Shown: piece by piece, positions 48,071 to 58,912 of the stretch
Position numbering within the stretch: the stretch's first letter is position 1
How the letters are laid out: each line of letters starts with the position of its first letter
Virus record (IMG/VR): IMGVR_UViG_3300002920_000014
Location: 1 to 64,000 of that record
DNA length: 64,000 bases
Origin: a virus
Reading direction: 5' to 3' (one strand)
Position numbers and translations under genes: made by a program
The notes under the pieces: generated by a model
What the model was told of the DNA's origin: nothing
Database searches by the model: none
What the model saw: only the letters and a program-made list of their open reading frames with translations

Positions 48071-48143
48071 GTGCGCCCTACAGGATTCGAACCTGTAACC
48101 TAGTGGTTATGAGCCACCTGCTCTGACCGTTGAGCTAAAGGCG
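48071..48143 (-). tRNA. tRNA with CAU anticodon (elongator Met, or Ile2 if lysidine-modified)
   Basis: A hand-folded cloverleaf was obtained. The acceptor is GCGCCTT/AGGGCGC, the D arm GCTC/GAGC, the anticodon loop CTCATAA and the T arm ACAGG-TTCGAAT-CCTGT. Discriminator A. Confidence 0.85.
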
Positions 48144-48184
48144 CGTTGAAATCATTGTAACAAAAAGCTGTGTGTCAAACAACC

Positions 48185-48637
48185 CTAAATACTTGAAAGT
48201 AAATACTTGAAAGTCTCCAAGAAAGCATGGAGAACTTCAAAAGTCTGACAAACAAGGTTTTTATTCTGAACACACCGAACCAACACCTCCGCATCTTCAT
48301 CCCCAGTCAACGTCAGCCCAAATAAAAATACAACTTCAAAAAACTTAGGGTATTGAGCTTTAGCTAACTCTCTGTGAACGGCGCTAACCAAAACGCCGCC
48401 CGTATTTTCCACAAGAACATACATTACATCATCCCCCCAAGAAAGATTCAAAGGCAGAATCAAGTCGTCGTCTTGGTATGCAAGACGAATAGATTTGGCA
48501 TGCGGCCAGTTAAAAACAGCGCATGCCAAAATTAAATACATACTAATGTCCTCAGATGCGTCTGGGACAATATCAGAAATAACACTAGCGCACGAAAACA
48601 GTGCGCGTAAAGCTGGAACATCAATATACCCCACCAT
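48185..48637 (-). CDS. hypothetical protein
   Basis: Starts at the ATG at 48637. The longer ORF to 48721 runs into the tRNA gene. Confidence 0.5.
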   Translation of the reverse strand: MVGYIDVPALRALFSCASVISDIVPDASEDISMYLILACAVFNWPHAKSIRLAYQDDDLILPLNLSWGDDVMYVLVENTGGVLVSAVHRELAKAQYPKFFEVVFLFGLTLTGDEDAEVLVRCVQNKNLVCQTFEVLHAFLETFKYLLSSI

Positions 48638-48662
48638 AATAACCCCGTGTATATTTAGTAAA

Positions 48663-48735
48663 TGCCCCTCGTGGGATTCGAACCCACACTGTGCCGATTT
48701 TAAGTCGGTTGCCTCTGCCATTGGGCTAGAGGGGC
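48663..48735 (-). tRNA. tRNA with UAA anticodon but a short (5-nt) variable loop; Leu(UAA)-like, atypical
   Basis: In the hand fold the acceptor is GCCCCTC/GAGGGGC and the anticodon loop is CTTAAAA. The T arm is GTGGG-TTCGAAT-CCCAC, with A73. The D stem has only 3 bp and there is an A27-C43 mismatch. Confidence 0.7.
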
Positions 48736-48739
48736 TAAA

Positions 48740-48812
48740 TGCCCTGGACAGGGATCGAACCTGCGACCTATCGCTTAGAAGGCGACTGCTCTATCCGCTG
48801 AGCTACCAGGGC
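48740..48812 (-). tRNA. tRNA-Arg (UCU)
   Basis: In the hand fold the acceptor is GCCCTGG/CCAGGGC and the D arm is GCTC/GAGC. The anticodon loop is CTTCTAA and the T arm is GCAGG-TTCGATC-CCTGT. Confidence 0.85.
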
Positions 48813-48877
48813 ATTTTTATGTTACCACTCTCCAATATCGAGGTCAATACTTAACCCCGATAAAAACGTATTACCAA

Positions 48878-50456: not shown

Positions 50457-51284
50457 TCAGGTATAGACCGGATCATCGCCGGTTTTATTACCGTCTTGGA
50501 CAAATATTAGGTCATGAAGATCGACTTTTACCGTATCGTTACGGTAAAGGACGACCTTTTCCCAAACACCCCGGGTGGGCCTATCATCATGGTAAAACAA
50601 CCCGGGATTTTCATCTTGGTCATAGACGTAACCCTCTATAAGGGCCACGTCAGAGAAACCCAATTTCTCTCCGCCAGCTAGGAGGGTCATACCCTCCCAG
50701 CGGGCGTCTGGATCTTTAATTTTACGACCATCGGAGGTCGTGATTACTGGGTCTTTTCCCAACTCGGGATGAGAGACTCCATTGGCCCAATTACAGGCCA
50801 ACGGGCACTCGCCCATATGGAAAAATTTACCCCCCACAACCACATGGGGAGTGGACGAAAGAATCGAGCGCCTTTCGGCCTCAAGGGCCTGTAATTGGCC
50901 CAAATAGTATATGTAAGCCTTATGGGCCTCCTCGATGGCCGATAGGGCCTCTTCTACCGACGAAAAAATCGTCGGCTCTGGAGTTTCTCTATGCAACCAA
51001 GAGTTGCTGGCATCTACCCCAGTAGGGTTAGCACGCCAGCCCCTCTCCCCCTTCGAGAGGGCCGAGGGGTGGATTTCGACTATGGCCCCCACCTCTAGCA
51101 TGGAGGCCCTACGACCCGGCACAAAAACTGTTTGCGAATTTTTCTGATGGCGTGCCATGCTTAATAGCGCGCCATTCTCAAACAGCTTAACGACTTTGGC
51201 CGCTACAGTTATCGGACCAAAGTCACTAACCGTTCTATACGACGGTAAGTCGGGCAGTTTTACCCGACTGGGTATTTTATCCAC
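50457..51284 (-). CDS. hypothetical protein (GC-rich island; start uncertain)
   Basis: The ORF extends to 51380. A GTG at 51284 is preceded by AAGGGGGG and overlaps the upstream stop (GTGGATAA), suggesting translational coupling. Confidence 0.5.
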   Translation of the reverse strand: MDKIPSRVKLPDLPSYRTVSDFGPITVAAKVVKLFENGALLSMARHQKNSQTVFVPGRRASMLEVGAIVEIHPSALSKGERGWRANPTGVDASNSWLHRETPEPTIFSSVEEALSAIEEAHKAYIYYLGQLQALEAERRSILSSTPHVVVGGKFFHMGECPLACNWANGVSHPELGKDPVITTSDGRKIKDPDARWEGMTLLAGGEKLGFSDVALIEGYVYDQDENPGLFYHDDRPTRGVWEKVVLYRNDTVKVDLHDLIFVQDGNKTGDDPVYT

Positions 51285-51540
51285 GTTTACCCCCCTTAAC
51301 TTTTTTGGCCGCCCGACGAGCGGCCAGTTGAAACGAGTGCGTTGGCTGGGTATGGGGAATAGAAATGTTCTTACGCCCATGAGCCAACGTTAGCTCAATG
51401 GGATTGCCCGGAACAACAGTAAGAACTTTCTCCCCATTTTCCCAAGTGAAATACGGCAACTTACCGGACTTAAGGATTTCAGCAGCGTGACGCTGCTGAG
51501 ACTCAAGTTTTATCCTATCTTTCTTATTCTTTTTGGCCAT
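51277..51540 (-). CDS. small basic protein (GC-rich island)
   Basis: ATG at 51540 follows GAGGAAAAAATC. The longer ORF to 51597 would read through tRNA-like module 1. Confidence 0.5.
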   Translation of the reverse strand: MAKKNKKDRIKLESQQRHAAEILKSGKLPYFTWENGEKVLTVVPGNPIELTLAHGRKNISIPHTQPTHSFQLAARRAAKKVKGGKRG

Positions 51541-51570: not shown

Positions 51571-51647
51571 AACACCAGGTGGGATTCGAACCCACAAAAC
51601 CGTTTATGTCAGAGTTGTCTGATGAGACAAGTCTAACATCTGGTGTT
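51571..51647 (-). ncRNA. tRNA-like module 1 (acceptor-like stem + long hairpin + canonical T arm, no D arm)
   Basis: The - strand reads AACACCAG | ATGTTAGACTTGTCTCATCAGACAACTCTGACAT | AAACGGTTTT | GTGGG-TTCGAAT-CCCAC | CTGGTGTT, then TTTTT. Confidence 0.6.
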
Positions 51648-51650
51648 AAT

Positions 51651-51679
51651 AGTTTAACGTCATTTCGGACGGAAGTCAA
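51651..51679 (-). promoter_or_regulatory. sigma70-like promoter (TTGACT-17 nt-TAAACT) abutting tRNA-like module 1
   Basis: The -35 is at 51679-51674 and the -10 at 51656-51651. It is embedded in a 68-nt block identical to 52708-52775. Confidence 0.5.
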
Positions 51680-51737
51680 CAGGCAGTTTAACGTCATGCC
51701 CAGGACGATTTTCACTACGAAAGAACAAAACCCCTAA

Positions 51738-52045: not shown

Positions 52046-52116
52046 AACACCAGGTGGGATTCGAACCCACAAAACCAATTATGACAGACTTTGTAAAAAA
52101 TCTGTCATCTGGTGTT
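52046..52116 (-). ncRNA. tRNA-like module 2
   Basis: The - strand reads AACACCAG | ATGACAGATTTTTTACAAAGTCTGTCAT | AATTGGTTTT | GTGGG-TTCGAAT-CCCAC | CTGGTGTT, then TTTTT. Confidence 0.6.
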
Positions 52117-52139
52117 ATAAAGAATGGATTGATATTTAA

Positions 52140-52640: not shown

Positions 52641-52715
52641 AACACCAGGTGGGATTCGAACCCACAAGACCAATTATGACGTACTACCCACATAGACAGT
52701 ACGACATCTGGTGTT
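52641..52715 (-). ncRNA. tRNA-like module 3
   Basis: The - strand reads AACACCAG | ATGTCGTACTGTCTATGTGGGTAGTACGTCAT | AATTGGTCTT | GTGGG-TTCGAAT-CCCAC | CTGGTGTT, then TTTTTT. Confidence 0.6.
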
Positions 52716-52718
52716 AAT

Positions 52719-52747
52719 AGTTTAACGTCATTTCGGACGGAAGTCAA
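52719..52747 (-). promoter_or_regulatory. sigma70-like promoter (TTGACT-17 nt-TAAACT) abutting tRNA-like module 3
   Basis: The sequence is identical to the 51651-51679 element. Confidence 0.5.
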
Positions 52748-52785
52748 CAGGCAGTTTAACGTCATGCCCAGGACGTGAGGCTGAA

Positions 52786-53121: not shown

Positions 53122-53376
53122 GTGTCCTCCTTATAGGCGATTAGAGCGATTTTTACAGCCCCTAGGTAGAGGTACAAGCCTGGGGGCTGTAAAAACGCTT
53201 TATAGGCCCTTGTGGGCCTTGTATGAGGCACTAGAAAAAACACCTAATGCCCCCCACAAGAGTCACAAGGGGTGACGGCCCGTACGGATAAGGCTGGCTA
53301 GGCCCCTGGGTAGCCCGTACACTCCCAGGAAAAGGTCATCCTCGTAATAAAATATACTAATATTTTGGTATTAATT

Positions 53377-53548
53377 ATGTTGATTAAAAAATCAACTATG
53401 CTAGTATTATGTCAGTACGGTGTCAGTACTGACAGGGAAACGCACCTATATCACCTATTATATTATATTAGGTGATATAGGTGCATTTTGCACCCTTCCC
53501 CTGAAAAAACTAGCATAGTGTTGACATAGTTGATTTTTTAATCAACAT
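53377..53548. repeat. 172-bp nested inverted-repeat structure in an AT-rich patch
   Basis: The outer arms are 53377-53404 and 53510-53548; the right arm carries an 11-nt insertion. The central palindrome is GCACCTATATCACCTA-11 nt-TAGGTGATATAGGTGC at 53442-53484. There are inner palindromes GTTGATTAAAAAATCAAC, GTCAGTACTGAC and GTTGATTTTTTAATCAAC. Confidence 0.85.
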
Positions 53549-53647
53549 GTCAGCACTACCCCATTTTAACACGGGGTAAAAAATTTTTTAACTTGTGTTA
53601 AAATTTAATTTTAAACTAGCAAAAAAATTATTTTAACTCATTTTAAA

Positions 53648-53793
53648 CCCCAGCCCCAGCCCCTCATTAGGGCTGGGGCTGGGGGCTGGAGGCTGGGGTA
53701 TGGGGGCTGTATTCGCCCCCATACCCCACAGCCCTTGTGGTGATTACGGGGGCTGGAGGCTGGGGTATGGGGCTGTATTCGCCCCCATACCCC
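53648..53793. repeat. GC-rich hairpin repeat cluster
   Basis: One 15-bp hairpin is CCCCAGCCCCAGCCC / GGGCTGGGGCTGGGG at 53648-53684. There are also two copies of GGGGGCTGGAGGCTGGGGTATGGGG(G)CTGTATTCGCCCCCATACCCC, each forming a 12-13-bp hairpin (53695-53727 and 53762-53793). Confidence 0.85.
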
Positions 53794-53806
53794 AGTTCTT
53801 GAGCCT

Positions 53807-54085
53807 CTAAACCCCGGGGGGGAGAATCGGCTTGGGCCGATTTTCCCACTTCAGCATCATTGCCCTAACTTCCTCGGGCAGACGCGGGTCATCGGGCGTT
53901 ACGACTTCTATCCCGTTTGGGCCACTATATACCCAAATTTTTTCACGCCATAGCCATCTTACCGTGTAGGCTTTTTCCAAAATCAACCCCCCGTCCCGAC
54001 GGAGGGGCCCCCAACACACTGCATGAGGCAGTGTGTCCAGGGTATAAAAAAACCCAATGCGTTCGCGCTTGTTTGACTTTTTCAT
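53807..54085 (-). CDS. hypothetical protein (GC-rich island)
   Basis: 92-aa ORF with GAGGATACG upstream of the ATG. Confidence 0.5.
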   Translation of the reverse strand: MKKSNKRERIGFFYTLDTLPHAVCWGPLRRDGGLILEKAYTVRWLWREKIWVYSGPNGIEVVTPDDPRLPEEVRAMMLKWENRPKPILPPGV

Positions 54086-54119
54086 CGTATCCTCGTTTCT
54101 TTTGATAGTTAAGTGTGTT

Positions 54120-54160
54120 GGAGGCTGGAGGCTGGGCGGGGGCTGTATCAGCCCCCGCCC
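54120..54160. repeat. third member of the GGAGGCTGG-hairpin family
   Basis: GGAGGCTGGAGGCTG is followed by the 12-bp hairpin GGGCGGGGGCTG-TAT-CAGCCCCCGCCC, located between two - strand genes. Confidence 0.8.
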
Positions 54161-54183
54161 AGATGACTTCGACTAGCTTTCGG

Positions 54184-54657
54184 CTAGTCGAAGTCGTATT
54201 CGTATTCCGAGTCGTCAAGGTCCAAGTCAAGGTAGGTGACTTTTGAAAGAGCCTTCTTTATGAACGCTCTTACCTCACCGTATACCGGTCCGCACTGGTT
54301 GAACCAGTGCCAACTGGAATAAGTAGTCAACTTGGACGCAAAGAACTTAAGCGCCGCCCCCACTTGGGGCGGTAGAGGACTTGGGTTACAACCGTACCAG
54401 GCTAGACGGCCTTCAAAGACGCGAATGCGTCCGACGTATGCTGATGAGCGTTTACCCGTACTGTCTACATTGGCCATACGGACGGCGTATATGTTTTCCG
54501 TGTTCTTAACAAACGCCAGCGTCATAAAGCTGGCGTTTGTTATGTTGCCATCTTCACGCTCGACTTCTACAAGTAAGCTAAACCGCCCCGTCGCTTTTTC
54601 TTCTTTTTTGGCGGCTTGGCGGGCGTTTAGGGCGTTTATGTATTGCTTGGCGTTCAT
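54184..54657 (-). CDS. hypothetical protein with acidic C-terminus (GC-rich island)
   Basis: ATG at 54657 is preceded by TAAGGAGGCTATC. The longer ORF start at 54705 lacks an SD. Confidence 0.55.
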   Translation of the reverse strand: MNAKQYINALNARQAAKKEEKATGRFSLLVEVEREDGNITNASFMTLAFVKNTENIYAVRMANVDSTGKRSSAYVGRIRVFEGRLAWYGCNPSPLPPQVGAALKFFASKLTTYSSWHWFNQCGPVYGEVRAFIKKALSKVTYLDLDLDDSEYEYDFD

Positions 54658-54705
54658 GATAGCCTCCTTATGGTTAACGGTTAGCAGTGCCTCAATCTGA
54701 GACAC

Positions 54706-55517
54706 TAGTAAGGGCCGTAACGTATGGCACGTTACGGCCCTTACTATTGGCTCGATTGATACGGGCTACTGTGACGGGCGTCACAGTAGCCCTAATCTTG
54801 TTGATTGCCCCCCTCGGGGTCAACGGGCGGGAGTCCTCATACCCTATGCCAGCTTACCCTCGTACATTGTACTACTCTCAGACTGGCCCGCGCCTCGCCC
54901 CAGCTAGTTGACTTACGATACCTTAAGTCCCTGTTACTGAAACTTACGCGGCTACTCTCTTACTACTCCTGCCGGTTGTCTTTTGCCCGTCTATAGCCAC
55001 TTGAATGACTTACCGTCACCCGTATGGGCTATTCGTGGCTATGGCCCGCGGGCGGGGTAACCCCCGCCCACAAGTAGCGCTAACCGTCTGCGCCTCAGCT
55101 ACGCCCGCGGCCAGCCCAAAACTGGAACTTGTTCCAGTGCTGGTAACGTCTCGGCCCTCACAGCTCGCCTTACGCTGTTCCGAGTTTCGAGGCGTCCCGT
55201 ATACCGCGTCTAGGTATCTAGACTTACGGGTCATCCCGCCCACTCGGGCGACAGCTTCCAGTGACGCTCTTAGGGGCGTCACCGTTAAGGGCGGCCGTTC
55301 CCAGTTCACCGCTGGGCCTCGGGGGCTTTCACCCCGAGCTAGGCTCGCCGTCCTCTAATCATGCGCTTGGGGGGTAACCCGCCCCAAGGGCTTTTCGAGG
55401 GACTTACTCGCGCGGGCGCATTCCGCGCATTAGGCAGCGCTCAATTGTTAAGGAGCGTTTGGGGGCGTTCCGTCTACCCCCTCGGGGGGGCTGGCCCGTC
55501 TGCCAGCCCGTCTTGAC
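54706..55517 (-). ncRNA. candidate large structured RNA or ~0.8 kb structured 5' leader (bounds approximate)
   Basis: There is no convincing ORF on the transcribed strand. At least 12 GC-rich hairpins are present, including a perfect 16-bp stem at 54707-54745 and a 13-bp stem at 54763-54792. GGGGTAACCC-type loops recur. A sigma70-like promoter lies immediately upstream. Confidence 0.45.
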
Positions 55518-55523
55518 ACTGAC

Positions 55524-55552
55524 ATACTACCTCGCCCCGTTAGCGGAGTCAA
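55524..55552 (-). promoter_or_regulatory. sigma70-like promoter (TTGACT-17 nt-TAGTAT)
   Basis: The -35 is at 55552-55547 and the -10 at 55529-55524. An AT-rich, UP-like stretch lies upstream on the - strand. It points into the structured region. Confidence 0.55.
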
Positions 55553-55605
55553 CTGTTTAGCCGTTTTCTTTAATCTGTTTCTCATGTTTTTCATTTTGGG
55601 GCGTC

Positions 55606-55800
55606 GCCAGCTGCTCCAGCAACGGCAGTCTCCAGCTGCTCCAGCAACGGCAGTCTCCAGCTGCTCCAGCAACGGCAGTCTCCAGCTGTTCCAACAACGG
55701 GCGTCGCCCGCTGTTCCAACAACGGGGGCGACTGCTCCAGCAACGGGGGCGACTGCTCCAGCAACGGCAGTCTCCAGCTGCTCCAGCAACGGGGGGCGAC
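55606..55800. repeat. eight tandem iteron-like repeats (21-25-nt period)
   Basis: The core GCTG(C/T)TCCA(G/A)CAACGG starts at 55610, 55635, 55660, 55685, 55710, ~55731, ~55752 and 55777. Confidence 0.9.
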
Positions 55801-55992
55801 TGCTTTTACCAGTCTTTAGGGGTGTATTCTTGTTCTGTTTTTTGTTGTGTGTACTGTCTGTTACTTTTTAAGTGTCAAGGCTATGTGTATATTACTAACA
55901 TATAGCTTTGTTACAATTATTATGGAATATTCCGAAATGTTTGAATCACGTTGTGACAAACGTATCGAGATTTTTTATGAATTTTTTAATTA

Positions 55993-56022
55993 TTGACTTT
56001 TGATACTAGTATGTGGTATAAT
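55993..56022 (+). promoter_or_regulatory. strong sigma70-like promoter (TTGACT-18 nt-TATAAT, TGG extended -10)
   Basis: The -35 is at 55993-55998 and the -10 at 56017-56022. It shares ATGTGGTATAATTAATTA with the promoter at 61822-61851. Confidence 0.65.
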
Positions 56023-56048
56023 TAATTAAATTTATATGGGGGGTTGTT

Positions 56049-56453
56049 ATGGGAAGACCAGCACTATCTTTGACGGACTATTTAAATCTTGCTAAAGACT
56101 GCAATCTTGAGTTTATTGGCCCTATGCCTGCTGATTCATCTGATAGTTCTCCTGCTTGGCGTTGTTTAATTACTGGTATTATTCAACATAAAAGTTATAA
56201 TGCAGTCAAAGCCACTTATCCTTATGGAAACCGATACCAAAAAGACTTTGAGAAGCAACTTGATAAATATCACTCTTTGGCTAAAAAACTTGGAATTACT
56301 TTTATTCATGAACCTGGTAAATTCCCTTATAATGTCAAAGTAGTTTGCTCCTGGTTAGGTCGTAATGGTAACATAGTACGTTGCTCTTATCACGATTTGG
56401 CGTACCAAACTATCCCTCGTCGACTTCTTGAGGAGCTTGGGATTGAAGACTGA
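56049..56453 (+). CDS. hypothetical protein
   Basis: 134-aa ORF with GGGGGG upstream. It is the first gene of the + strand block. Confidence 0.55.
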   Translation: MGRPALSLTDYLNLAKDCNLEFIGPMPADSSDSSPAWRCLITGIIQHKSYNAVKATYPYGNRYQKDFEKQLDKYHSLAKKLGITFIHEPGKFPYNVKVVCSWLGRNGNIVRCSYHDLAYQTIPRRLLEELGIED

Positions 56454-56859: not shown

Positions 56860-57459
56860 ATGTCTACGACTAAAGCTGCTCGTTTGGCAAAAGTCAATTT
56901 AAAAAATGAAATACTTCGCTGTGCTACTATCGACGGGTTGTCTGTGCCGGCTATAGCGGATAGTTTGGGTATTTCGGAGACAGTTGTGAAGTCCGCTCTT
57001 GACGAGGCTCAACGACAAGCTGATTTACTTCATACTGATTTGGTTACCCGATATAAGATTCTTAATCTGAGTAGGTTAAATTCCTTGTATGAGGCTGTTG
57101 AACCTTACGCTCTTGGGGAGGTTGAGGTGTTGGGGGGTGCCCCAAGTCCACAGCACGCTAAGTTGGCTCTTGACATCATCAAGCAAGTAGATGCTATGTT
57201 GCCTAAATTAATCACCAAAGAAGACTCAGATGTTAAGAAGATGACGATTACTATCTCCAGAGATGACGATATCTATAAAGCGGCTAGTATGCACTTAGAC
57301 CCAGGTCTTCTTGTTCAGGTTCTTAAAGACAATTACGAAGTTGATTCTGCTTACATGCCTGAAATTAATACTCCCACTGTTGTAACTGATCCCTCTGTGT
57401 TCGGGGAAAGTTTTGAGCGATTACATAGTGCCATAGAGGATGATCTTAATGTCACTTAA
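56860..57459 (+). CDS. terminase small subunit candidate (HTH)
   Basis: N-terminal helix-turn-helix (GLSVPAIADSLGISETVVKSAL). It lies directly upstream of TerL and overlaps it. Confidence 0.55.
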   Translation: MSTTKAARLAKVNLKNEILRCATIDGLSVPAIADSLGISETVVKSALDEAQRQADLLHTDLVTRYKILNLSRLNSLYEAVEPYALGEVEVLGGAPSPQHAKLALDIIKQVDAMLPKLITKEDSDVKKMTITISRDDDIYKAASMHLDPGLLVQVLKDNYEVDSAYMPEINTPTVVTDPSVFGESFERLHSAIEDDLNVT

Positions 57460-58912
57460 AGCTGATGATGTTGAGAGTAAATTAATTGAGTTGGCTCGAT
57501 CATCCCCTTATTATTTTATTTGGTATGTATCAGGTCATCAACCTGCTACCCACCATGTTAAGTGGCTTAAGCTTTTGTTCTCTGAGGAACACACTCGCAT
57601 AAACATTGTTGCTCCTCGTGAGAGTGCCAAGACAACGATTCTTGTCTATTCTCTTCTTTGGTTGATGTCGATAAACCCCCTTTGGACTAATGCTATTGTT
57701 TCAGTTTCAAAAAGTCAAGCTCGTGAACGTTTAACTTTAATTCGCACTATTATTGAGACAAATCAGCGGTACAGGAATGTGTTTCCCCACATATTCATCG
57801 ACGAAAATCGTTCTTCAACTCAGGATACTTTTTCTCTTTGGGATAGCTCTTATCCAAGTTACGCTGCTTGGATGACAGAAGTTACTCAAAAGGGTTCATT
57901 AAAAGATCCCACACTGTTCGTTACCGGGGCTCTTGGTAAAGGTTTCATTGGTCGTCGTATTAGTGGATGGCTAGTTATGGATGACATTGTGGATGAGAGT
58001 TTGTCTAACCCCGCTGGTCAAGATAAGATGATGAGTTATATTATGACTACTCTCGAGCCTTGTATTAAAGCCAGTGGTAAAATCATTAACATCGGAACTC
58101 GTTGGATTATTAATGACGTATACGAGCGTTTGATGAACAACCCAAAGTGGACGAGTTCTGTAACAAGGGGCATAACTTACAACGAAGACGGTCAACCTGT
58201 GTCTTATTGGCCTGAGTTTTGGAGTCTTGAACGTTTGGAGGATAAACGGCGTATCATTAATGATGACCGTATTTTTGGCGTTATGTACTTGTGTGATGTT
58301 CATGCTAACGCTCTTGAACTTTTTAATTCTAAGACGGCTTCTAAAGACATACCTCATCCTTTGCCACCTTTTATTGGCGTATATGTGAGTACTGATTGGG
58401 CGACTTCTACTAAAGAACGCGCAGATTATACTGTGTTTGCTGCGTTAGGTGTTGATGCTCTTCACAATATTTATCTTTTGGATATGGAGCGCCGAAAAGA
58501 ACCTATTGATACCCTCATGGAATCTTTCTATGCTTTTGTTGATAGAACTTCGGCTCTGTACGGAAGATTGGATGCTGTTATTACCGAGAATGTAGCTTTC
58601 CAAAGTGTTATTTATGGCTTAGTTGCATCCGCCCGTCCTGACATACCTATAGTCGGTATTGTTCCTAAGGGAGATAAGACCCAGAGAGCGCGTGTTCTTG
58701 CTAATTATGCACTTAATGATAAGTTTTATGTTAATCAACGTATTGATCCTTATGTTCTCAAGGCGCTCAATGACGAGCTTGTCAATTTTGGTATCCATCC
58801 TCATGATGACACCGTGGATGCTTTGTCGCTTTTGTTTCAACACACAAAACTTATTTCAGTTGAGGCTAAAGTCGTTAAAGTTTTTCCTGGTAAACGACTA
58901 ACTCGTATTTGA
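57440..58912 (+). CDS. terminase large subunit
   Basis: The Walker A-like motif is VAPRESAKTT and Walker B is WLVMDDIVDE. The C-terminal RNase H-like nuclease acidic residues are seen in VSTDWATS and HPHDDTVDAL. Confidence 0.85.
   Translation: MILMSLKADDVESKLIELARSSPYYFIWYVSGHQPATHHVKWLKLLFSEEHTRINIVAPRESAKTTILVYSLLWLMSINPLWTNAIVSVSKSQARERLTLIRTIIETNQRYRNVFPHIFIDENRSSTQDTFSLWDSSYPSYAAWMTEVTQKGSLKDPTLFVTGALGKGFIGRRISGWLVMDDIVDESLSNPAGQDKMMSYIMTTLEPCIKASGKIINIGTRWIINDVYERLMNNPKWTSSVTRGITYNEDGQPVSYWPEFWSLERLEDKRRIINDDRIFGVMYLCDVHANALELFNSKTASKDIPHPLPPFIGVYVSTDWATSTKERADYTVFAALGVDALHNIYLLDMERRKEPIDTLMESFYAFVDRTSALYGRLDAVITENVAFQSVIYGLVASARPDIPIVGIVPKGDKTQRARVLANYALNDKFYVNQRIDPYVLKALNDELVNFGIHPHDDTVDALSLLFQHTKLISVEAKVVKVFPGKRLTRI

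Follow-up and report, generated by a model that had tools for sequence, protein, structure and literature searches.

In ribosomal RNA (rrn) operons 16S rRNA is enclosed by a stem whose 5' strand comes after a boxA element, and the rrn leaders of Gamma- and Betaproteobacteria follow the order boxB-boxA-boxC before the 5' strand of the RNase III stem begins. The nutL/N-leader of lambdoid phages is built from the promoter pL, boxA, boxB, an RNase III-sensitive leader and the first early gene, and in lambda the N-leader measures about 220 nt. NusB and NusE are recruited by boxA, and the resulting complexes shield untranslated rRNA and lambdoid early operons from Rho (PMC12360218); boxA elements also lie ahead of CRISPR arrays and other long non-coding RNAs, where they raise distal expression (PMC7862264). 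The large RNAs GOLLD and ROOL, recognized by structures that are conserved and covary, occur in phages and prophages and typically flank tRNA islands (PMC12286853). Here we analyze positions 54706-55552 of a 64,000-nt stretch of IMG/VR virus record IMGVR_UViG_3300002920_000014 (positions 1 to 64,000 of that record, referred to below as the window), a tailed-phage genome of about 38% GC. The segment lies at the head of a leftward operon on the minus strand, and we found that it carries an exact rrn-type boxA and spacer, CGCTCCTTAACAATTGA (55457-55441), about 60 nt past the inferred transcript start, an element overlooked in a preliminary description of the locus made from the sequence alone. 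On balance, sequence identity and structure prediction point to an unusually long, structured 5' leader, probably antiterminated through boxA and the Nus factors and possibly processed, that heads the leftward operon of a swapped-in early module.

The boxA and spacer of the phage (CGCUCCUUAACAAUUGA, 55441-55457, minus strand) match the rrn type. The boxA core, GCUCCUUAACAA at 55456-55445 on the minus strand, satisfies the consensus GCUCUUUAACAA, which was applied to the transcribed strand with one pyrimidine change allowed; the boxA-spacer of the Escherichia coli rrn operons reads ugcucuuuaacaauuua (PMC2724277, Table 1). Across both strands of the window (128 kb) the boxA-spacer sequence has a single exact match, which is promoter-proximal and is followed by about 790 nt without an open reading frame (ORF). 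When 185,579 reference genomes were scanned with the 16-mer pattern GCTCYTTAACAATYGA, the matches fell mostly in rrn leaders of Halomonadaceae, Pseudomonas, Burkholderiales and other Gamma- and Betaproteobacteria; a 16S gene started 127-258 nt downstream in 25 of the 121 matches, and many other matches ended at contig ends. An uncultured gammaproteobacterium (L049) has the identical 17-mer CGCTCCTTAACAATTGA upstream of 16S, and the boxA variant suggests that the phage has a Gamma- or Betaproteobacterial host.

Comparable elements are present in other phages. The 17-mer pattern occurred in 54 IMG/VR contigs, many of them non-coding, promoter-proximal, nut-like leaders of prophages. Three IMG/VR phage contigs have an rrn-type boxA directly upstream of a tRNA array, at L182 243-259 (ahead of 18 of the 19 tRNA genes in the locus), L184 5881-5897 (34 tRNA genes) and L221 3987-4003 (16 tRNA genes), which suggests Nus-dependent antitermination of tRNA operons, and indicates that phages place boxA at the head of untranslated transcription units. 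In the leader studied here, boxA is predicted to be open over its full length in about half of the ensemble; positions 55452-55445 are unpaired in the minimum free energy (MFE) structure, with a best pair probability of at most 0.23, while 55456-55453 are predicted to pair locally (p about 0.5). A role of boxA as an anti-Shine-Dalgarno (anti-SD) sequence masking the ribosome-binding site was considered and set aside, as the seven complementary bases have an ensemble pairing probability of at most 0.06. No boxB hairpin with a GNRA-like pentaloop was found 8-10 nt past boxA, an alternative of the form GCGC-GGAAU-GCGC being taken up by a long-range stem, and no N-like arginine-rich motif was seen by eye in the first gene of the operon.

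The 5' strand of that long-range stem (55404-55444, minus strand; helices of 7, 5, 10 and 3 bp with pair probabilities of 0.81-0.99) begins 3 nt after boxA, and its 3' strand (55074-55118, minus strand) is the best partner for it in the whole transcript; 55441-55406 would pair with 55115-55076 to give some 25 bp with interruptions. At -50.4 kcal/mol the duplex lies well below 1000 shuffles (-32.2 +/- 4.5), none of which was as low, and the stem is still an outlier against best-of-scan controls (z -3.9). The enclosed domain of about 290 nt (55116-55405, minus strand) folds into at least eight local hairpins, with loops GUUA, UGAAAGC, CCCUAAGA, GAGU, AUAC and CAAG. Upstream of boxA lies the first hairpin of the transcript (55488-55509, minus strand; 8 bp, loop AGACGG, pair probability 0.94), whose position is that of boxB in an rrn leader and, on that ground, might give it a boxB-like role.

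Beyond the stem-enclosed domain follows a 13-bp hairpin with a GUUA loop (55045-55074, minus strand; probability 0.98), the extension of which is specific to the minus strand through three G-U pairs. The 3' half of the body (54848-55039, minus strand) is predicted to form three sub-domains with purine-rich unpaired stretches and four copies of GUAAGU, and includes a helix with four G-U pairs (54943-54936 with 54904-54897). Two strong hairpins close the leader, a perfect one of 13 bp (54763-54792, minus strand) and a near-perfect one of 18-19 bp (54706-54746, minus strand), the latter 50 nt upstream of the start codon. Neither has a U tract, and the second could be a double-strand-specific processing site or a 5' stabilizer. 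The transcribed strand contains GUAAGU(C) and AGACGG five times each, an enrichment that is borderline after correction for the k-mers tested, and the leader shows no internal duplication or tandem-domain architecture.

The order of boxA followed by a long-range stem resembles, by analogy, the leader of an rRNA operon, and it recurs independently in an unrelated IMG/VR phage (L168, 240-530, minus strand). There, the identical 17-mer CGCTCCTTAACAATTGA lies 20 nt past a TTGACA-17-TAGGAT promoter. Directly after it comes one arm of a perfect inverted repeat of 17 nt, with 13 bp paired in the MFE structure; the repeat surrounds about 215 nt and reaches as far as the SD sequence of the first gene (z -6.0). 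In the MFE structure of the L168 leader, the boxA segment CUCCUU also pairs with the SD sequence AAGGAG. The layout is weaker in L210 and L180, and is absent from 14 other phage boxA leaders.

The leader is delimited by a sigma-70-type promoter, TTGACT-17 nt-TAGTAT (55524-55552, minus strand), with a transcript start inferred near 55517, and by the first gene of the operon, an orphan of 157 amino acids (aa) with an ATG at 54657 and a strong SD sequence UAAGGAGG (54670-54663); gene and SD together span 54184-54670 on the minus strand, and the signal-to-noise ratio (S/N) of 3-periodicity in the gene is 4.4. Its SD sequence is largely unpaired in the predicted ensemble. The 157-aa product has no homologue and no family match, and its AlphaFold (AF2) model had a pLDDT of 47.5 and was not used. 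The -35 hexamer of the leftward promoter recurs at three promoter-like sites, 52747 and 51679 on the minus strand and 55993 on the plus strand. About 860 nt separate the promoter from this gene without a credible ORF, and the scan found no intrinsic-terminator-like site on the minus strand between them. The preliminary description had proposed both this promoter and the lack of a credible ORF on the minus strand before the SD and ATG at 54657; the promoter scan recovered the former, and analyses of periodicity and codon-phase GC together with Pfam and homologue searches bear out the latter.

The stretch is non-coding. The longest ORFs inside it, of 97 aa (55016-55309, minus strand) and 117 aa (55005-55358, plus strand), are what might recommend a missed protein-coding gene, an explanation that we regard as highly improbable. 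Their lengths equal the chance expectation at 62% GC, and they lack 3-periodicity (S/N 0.8, compared with 3-7.6 in five of the six neighbouring ORFs of the surrounding GC-rich island that were tested, ORF92 having 1.2). Codon-phase GC is flat in both, neither has a Pfam match above noise, and the translated leader ORFs found zero homologues in protein libraries of 5.8 billion and 1.84 billion entries. The leader also has no SD-led small ORF, the sole SD-like site being weak and buried within a hairpin stem.

The predicted folding of the leader is unusually strong. The 820-nt transcript has an MFE of -393 kcal/mol, compared with -326 +/- 6.5 for dinucleotide shuffles (z -10.5), and perfect hairpins with stems of at least 6 bp gave 17 calls (10 distinct), compared with 1.5 +/- 1.4 in 300 dinucleotide shuffles, none of which equalled it. 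These results uphold the earlier account of a hairpin-dense stretch, and the comparison with shuffled controls that it had proposed places the leader well below them. All of the individual hairpins that it listed exist, among them 55050-55069 (8 bp, or 13 with G-U pairs), 55121-55138, 55208-55223, 55318-55338 and 55366-55388; the stem given as 16 bp at 54707-54745 is the one of 18-19 bp at 54706-54746. Over the whole region, z is alike on the two strands (-10.5 and -11.5), but these values are uninformative about strand because perfect palindromes dominate them. Once the two big 3' hairpins are removed, the body scores -6.8 as minus-strand RNA and -3.7 as plus strand, and G-U pairs contribute -34 kcal/mol on the minus strand versus -24 on the plus. 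The leader RNA consists of 34% G, 27% C, 23% A and 16% U, with several runs of G4-6. Strand asymmetry, G-U pairs, composition and boxA favour a reading at the RNA level, only modestly.

Comparison with relatives of the phage indicated that the leader belongs to a mosaic segment. The closest relative, a 4.6-kb Logan contig (L011), has a large terminase (TerL) that is 88% identical and aligns with the window at 75.6% nucleotide identity over 4.1 kb of late genes rightwards of 55926 (L011 442), with no alignment leftwards. Given this sharp mosaic breakpoint, the entire early module has been exchanged between close relatives. The leftward leader of L011 is about 300 nt long, lacks the 0.7-kb body and runs about 105 nt from boxA to the first ATG; the sole sequence common to the two leaders is CAAA(C)GCTCYTTAACAATYGA, that is, boxA and spacer, so far as a single relative can tell a sign that boxA was kept while its flanks diverged. 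The 0.7-kb body is confined to this phage and is part of the GC-rich swapped-in module. Other TerL relatives are many, at identities of 48% or less, and none has a homologous leader. Nevertheless, L013/L014 and L017 (TerL 46%) have about 750 nt free of ORFs ahead of the first leftward gene, with sequences unrelated to the present leader. These leaders have motifs of their own: that of L013 (2970-3720, minus strand; z -7.2) contains GUAGCGCGUARGU twice and UACCGCUU and GUAAGU three times each, and that of L017 (7986-8796, minus strand) has four copies of AUUAGC..CUUAC and tandem repeats. L013 also has a possible boxA-like UGUUAUCAAUCGAA about 30 nt past its promoter. A 13-mer, GTAGCGCGTAAGT, that seemed common to the leader and L013 is enriched in neither phage, and was discarded.

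The stretch belongs to no known family of large RNAs. Rfam 15 was searched in gathering mode with the whole window and, for segments of 3.2 and 0.95 kb, in E-value mode with permissive filters, and gave no match to GOLLD, ROOL, HEARO, OLE, raiA, introns, riboswitches, RNase P, tmRNA or 6S RNA, even at E<=10; the only matches were spurious hairpins of microRNA or snoRNA type, far under gathering scores. The preliminary description had proposed a check against families of this kind, which thus yielded trivial hairpins, and had raised the possibility of a GOLLD- or ROOL-like ornate RNA in a neighbourhood holding tRNA genes. That suggestion is not supported. The models RF01998 (GOLLD), with its conserved 3' domain, and RF03087 (ROOL), with its conserved core of several pseudoknots, are unmatched, there is no homologue in the collections searched, L011 has no body, structure does not rise above that of neighbouring coding sequence, and the tRNA genes are not adjacent, the three of them lying on the same strand about 6 kb downstream (48071-48813), beyond seven ORFs and further non-coding blocks. 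The leader shares with GOLLD and ROOL a phage location, a size of 0.6-0.8 kb, many hairpins and tRNA genes, here in the same operon; it differs in matching no Rfam model, in its distance from the tRNA island and in belonging to no family.

BLAST of the leader found no match in phage GenBank records, PLSDB plasmids or complete E. coli genomes, and exact-pattern scans of IMG/VR with three leader segments were also empty. The single match of the JGI metagenome scan, in a collection that does not contain the source contig, was a chance match in a bacterial ribosome-binding region (L167) with no further similarity, and was rejected. With nhmmer and blastn against 221 fetched loci (1.86 Mb), boxA alone matched. 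No collection searched thus yielded a homologue, and with it conservation, covariation or compensatory base changes.

Taken together, the boxA, the absence of a terminator before the first gene and the position at the head of the leftward early operon agree with the other possibility that the preliminary description had left standing, an unusually long regulatory leader. We postulate that host NusB and NusE (S10) would bind the nascent boxA and, with NusA and NusG, make RNA polymerase resistant to termination, as in rrn operons, lambdoid nut sites and CRISPR arrays. The modified polymerase could then cross 0.8 kb of untranslated RNA without Rho-dependent termination, and antitermination may also carry it over the rest of the operon, with its hairpin blocks, tRNA-like modules and tRNA genes. 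With boxA tethered to the polymerase, the long-range stem would also close more readily, as has been proposed for 16S rRNA. Both this stem and the 3' hairpin of 18-19 bp are plausible sites for double-strand-specific processing of RNase III type, which might separate the leader from the mRNA.

Several features of this proposal have parallels in the systems described above. As in an rrn leader, a hairpin lies upstream of boxA, boxA and spacer are identical to those ahead of a 16S gene (in L049), and a long-range stem, one strand of which comes directly after boxA, closes off an untranslated RNA that is structured and rich in G; unlike an rrn leader, the phage domain of 290 nt has no rRNA similarity and no clear boxC (GUGUGGG), a protein-coding operon follows, and Nus binding and RNase III cleavage are putative. 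The lambdoid nutL resembles it in being the first unit of a leftward early operon with boxA near the 5' end and a structured leader with long double-stranded hairpins ahead of the first gene, and similar boxA leaders occur in many prophage contigs. The present leader is, however, about four times longer than that of lambda, has no recognizable boxB/N pair and carries a full rrn-type boxA rather than lambda's CGCUCUUA. In other non-coding units led by boxA, namely CRISPR arrays (PMC7862264) and the phage tRNA arrays of L182, L184 and L221, the element also lies less than about 100 nt from the start of a long untranslated transcript, but the RNA downstream here is neither a repeat-spacer array nor tRNAs.

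If this reading of boxA is correct, this phage and others in IMG/VR would borrow host rRNA antitermination for long untranslated early transcripts with no N-like protein, and the few targets of boxA listed so far (rRNA, lambdoid early operons, CRISPR arrays and suhB) would be joined by phage tRNA arrays and long structured leaders. The layout of boxA followed by a stem, here and in L168, could offer a simple system for studying the Nus complex as an RNA-folding chaperone beyond ribosome biogenesis.

A number of observations weigh against this proposal. The excess of hairpins and folding spans the whole GC-rich module, ORFs included. In 150-nt windows the leader body has a mean z of about -2, similar to or weaker than the ORFs of the island and far short of the non-coding block at 53.1-53.8 kb (-6 to -13); ORF307 (50457-51380) reaches z -11.1 over 726 nt and has 14 hairpins, with 1.6 expected, and inverted repeats of 16-19 nt inside it, and 53807-54532 scores -7.8 (726 nt), compared with -2 to +0.5 for sequence outside the island. 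Perfect hairpins with stems of at least 7 bp number 4, 5, 9, 9, 8 and 5 per kb in kilobases 50 to 55, as opposed to about one per kb elsewhere, and the GC-rich module holds 40 of the 99 in the window. The stretch is thus the head, devoid of ORFs, of a mosaic early module saturated with hairpins, and the hairpins inside neighbouring ORFs show that a module-wide force, possibly acting on DNA, makes them; perfect Watson-Crick hairpins are in any case strand-symmetric. This saturation may point to a form of selection not described before, acting either on the early RNA of phages or on their single-stranded DNA. As no homologue and hence no covariation was found, all helices are predicted from thermodynamics; promoter, start site, read-through and processing are likewise predicted, and the function of boxA is deduced from sequence identity and context. 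Two relatives, L019 and L022, have short gaps of about 200-360 nt at the equivalent place. A G-rich, highly structured RNA is a poor Rho substrate anyway, so that antitermination would be less needed over the leader itself, and boxA may serve the downstream operon instead of the leader.

The body may have a function of its own as a processed non-coding RNA, or may simply be part of the module-wide hairpin phenomenon. It is conceivable, but unlikely, that the stretch encodes a new stand-alone large structured RNA, either the stem-enclosed domain of about 330 nt or the whole 0.8 kb, within an rRNA-operon-like cassette from which it would be released by cleavage at the stem, the 3' hairpin or both, and that it has its own role in infection, for example in sequestering a host factor. 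Such an RNA would account for the resemblance to 16S in an rrn operon, with boxA leading directly into a significant long-range stem, for the folding advantage and G-U-rich helices of the minus strand, for a G-rich, purine-rich make-up like that of stable RNAs, and for the over-representation of GUAAGU(C) and AGACGG, five copies each, on the transcribed strand; phages do put boxA ahead of stable-RNA genes, and large phage RNAs of unknown function exist (PMC12286853). Against it, no homologue turned up in phages, plasmids, E. coli genomes, IMG/VR, JGI metagenomes or translated searches, the closest relative L011 lacks the body, and the transcript has neither a terminator nor a defined 3' end ahead of the ORF. 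In 150-nt windows its local structure, at a mean z of about -2, does not exceed that of neighbouring ORFs, and the motif enrichment is borderline once corrected. A more elaborate version appears rather unlikely to us, in which a sigma-70 promoter, an rrn-type boxA, a processing stem around a core of about 300 nt and a structured tail of about 350 nt would make up a miniature rRNA-operon-like cassette with a trans-acting product, inside a 6-kb module under selection for extreme secondary structure of its RNA, within ORFs as well.

Two further explanations are both quite improbable, to about the same degree. The segment could be a DNA-level element of the divergent control region, such as a replication origin or a packaging or partition site, in which nearby repeats and an AT-rich core would be flanked by a GC-rich hairpin field activated by transcription or primed by R-loops, as in ColE1 RNA II or lambda ori. 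Eight 25-nt repeats (55603-55792) indeed adjoin DNA of 25-31% GC (55800-56050), the cumulative GC-skew minimum and the switch in transcription direction both fall at about 55.5-56 kb, and the site is 1.3 kb upstream of terS/terL; moreover, the perfect palindromes are strand-symmetric and occur within ORFs as well, the transcript has several G4-6 runs, and L017 has short and tandem repeats of its own at the equivalent place. Like ColE1 RNA II, the leader is several hundred nt long, untranslated, structured and rich in G, and its transcription starts next to an iteron-like, AT-rich region; unlike it, there is no evidence of a downstream origin, boxA is not an RNA II feature and no antisense promoter pair like that of RNA I is present. 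The repeats and AT-rich DNA also lie outside the 0.8-kb stretch. The only conserved element, boxA, is a signal that acts in RNA, the body has its better fold on the minus strand, none of the genes nearby was recognized as a replication initiator, and an origin would leave the hairpins over 6 kb unexplained. Alternatively, the body could be functionless filler or a decayed mobile insertion into a short, L011-like boxA leader, for instance one resembling a miniature inverted-repeat transposable element with the long-range stem as its terminal inverted repeats, the hairpins then reflecting a module-wide mutational or selective bias. The 105 nt or so between boxA and the first ATG in L011, the imperfect inverted repeats of about 40 nt that flank the 290-nt domain, the module-wide hairpin excess and the orphan nature of the sequence are consistent with this idea, whereas neither a second copy (in the window or any collection) nor a target-site duplication was seen, L168 independently has the design of boxA plus stem, and relatives at 46% TerL identity keep ORF-free leaders of about 750 nt.

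The surroundings of the boxA-led leader are those of a divergent transcription switch at about 55.6-56.0 kb. A rightward promoter, TTGACT-18-TATAAT (55993-56022), is directed at the late genes, which include a gene with a helix-turn-helix (56860-57459), probably the small terminase, and TerL (57440-58912, plus strand); among cultured phages the best TerL identity is 29% (tblastn), and none is close. Between the divergent promoters, just upstream of the leftward one and outside the modelled transcript, eight copies of the 25-nt unit GTTGCTGGAGCAGCTGGAGACTGCC form a tandem repeat without strand assignment, next to the AT-rich DNA already mentioned. The arrangement is like iterons with an unwinding element, or like an operator array, and L011 is without these repeats.

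Leftwards extends the GC-rich island (about 50.0-55.9 kb, 50-66% GC), and about 44% of 48.0-55.5 kb is non-coding according to the ORF map. The 307-aa protein has no IMG/VR relative. Near the tRNA genes, a 178-aa ORF from the mechanical list (48185-48721, minus strand) overlaps tRNA-Leu and abuts tRNA-Arg, and is probably in part spurious. A non-coding block of 670 nt (53130-53800) has the strongest local folding of the locus (z -6 to -13), with AT-rich palindromes of 25-40 nt (53377-53548), several promoter-like sites and two copies of the hairpin GGGGUAUGGGGGC-GAAUACA-GCCCCAUACCCC; a related hairpin, GGGCGGGGGC..GCCCCCGCCC, follows ORF157 (54134-54160). A tRNA-like module is present in three copies on the minus strand (51579-51707, 52054-52120 and 52649-52775), each within the 5' untranslated region of a small gene and composed of an acceptor-like stem (ACACCAG/CUGGUGU), a long hairpin, a canonical T arm GUGGGUUCGAAUCCCAC and then a U run. 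Neither ARAGORN nor Rfam called these modules tRNA, the only sub-threshold matches being to tRNA-Sec, the tmRNA T arm and, on the other strand, Plastid-ycf2. Two of the modules are preceded by a 72-nt exact repeat that holds a TTGACT-17-TAAACT promoter (51636-51707 and 52704-52775).

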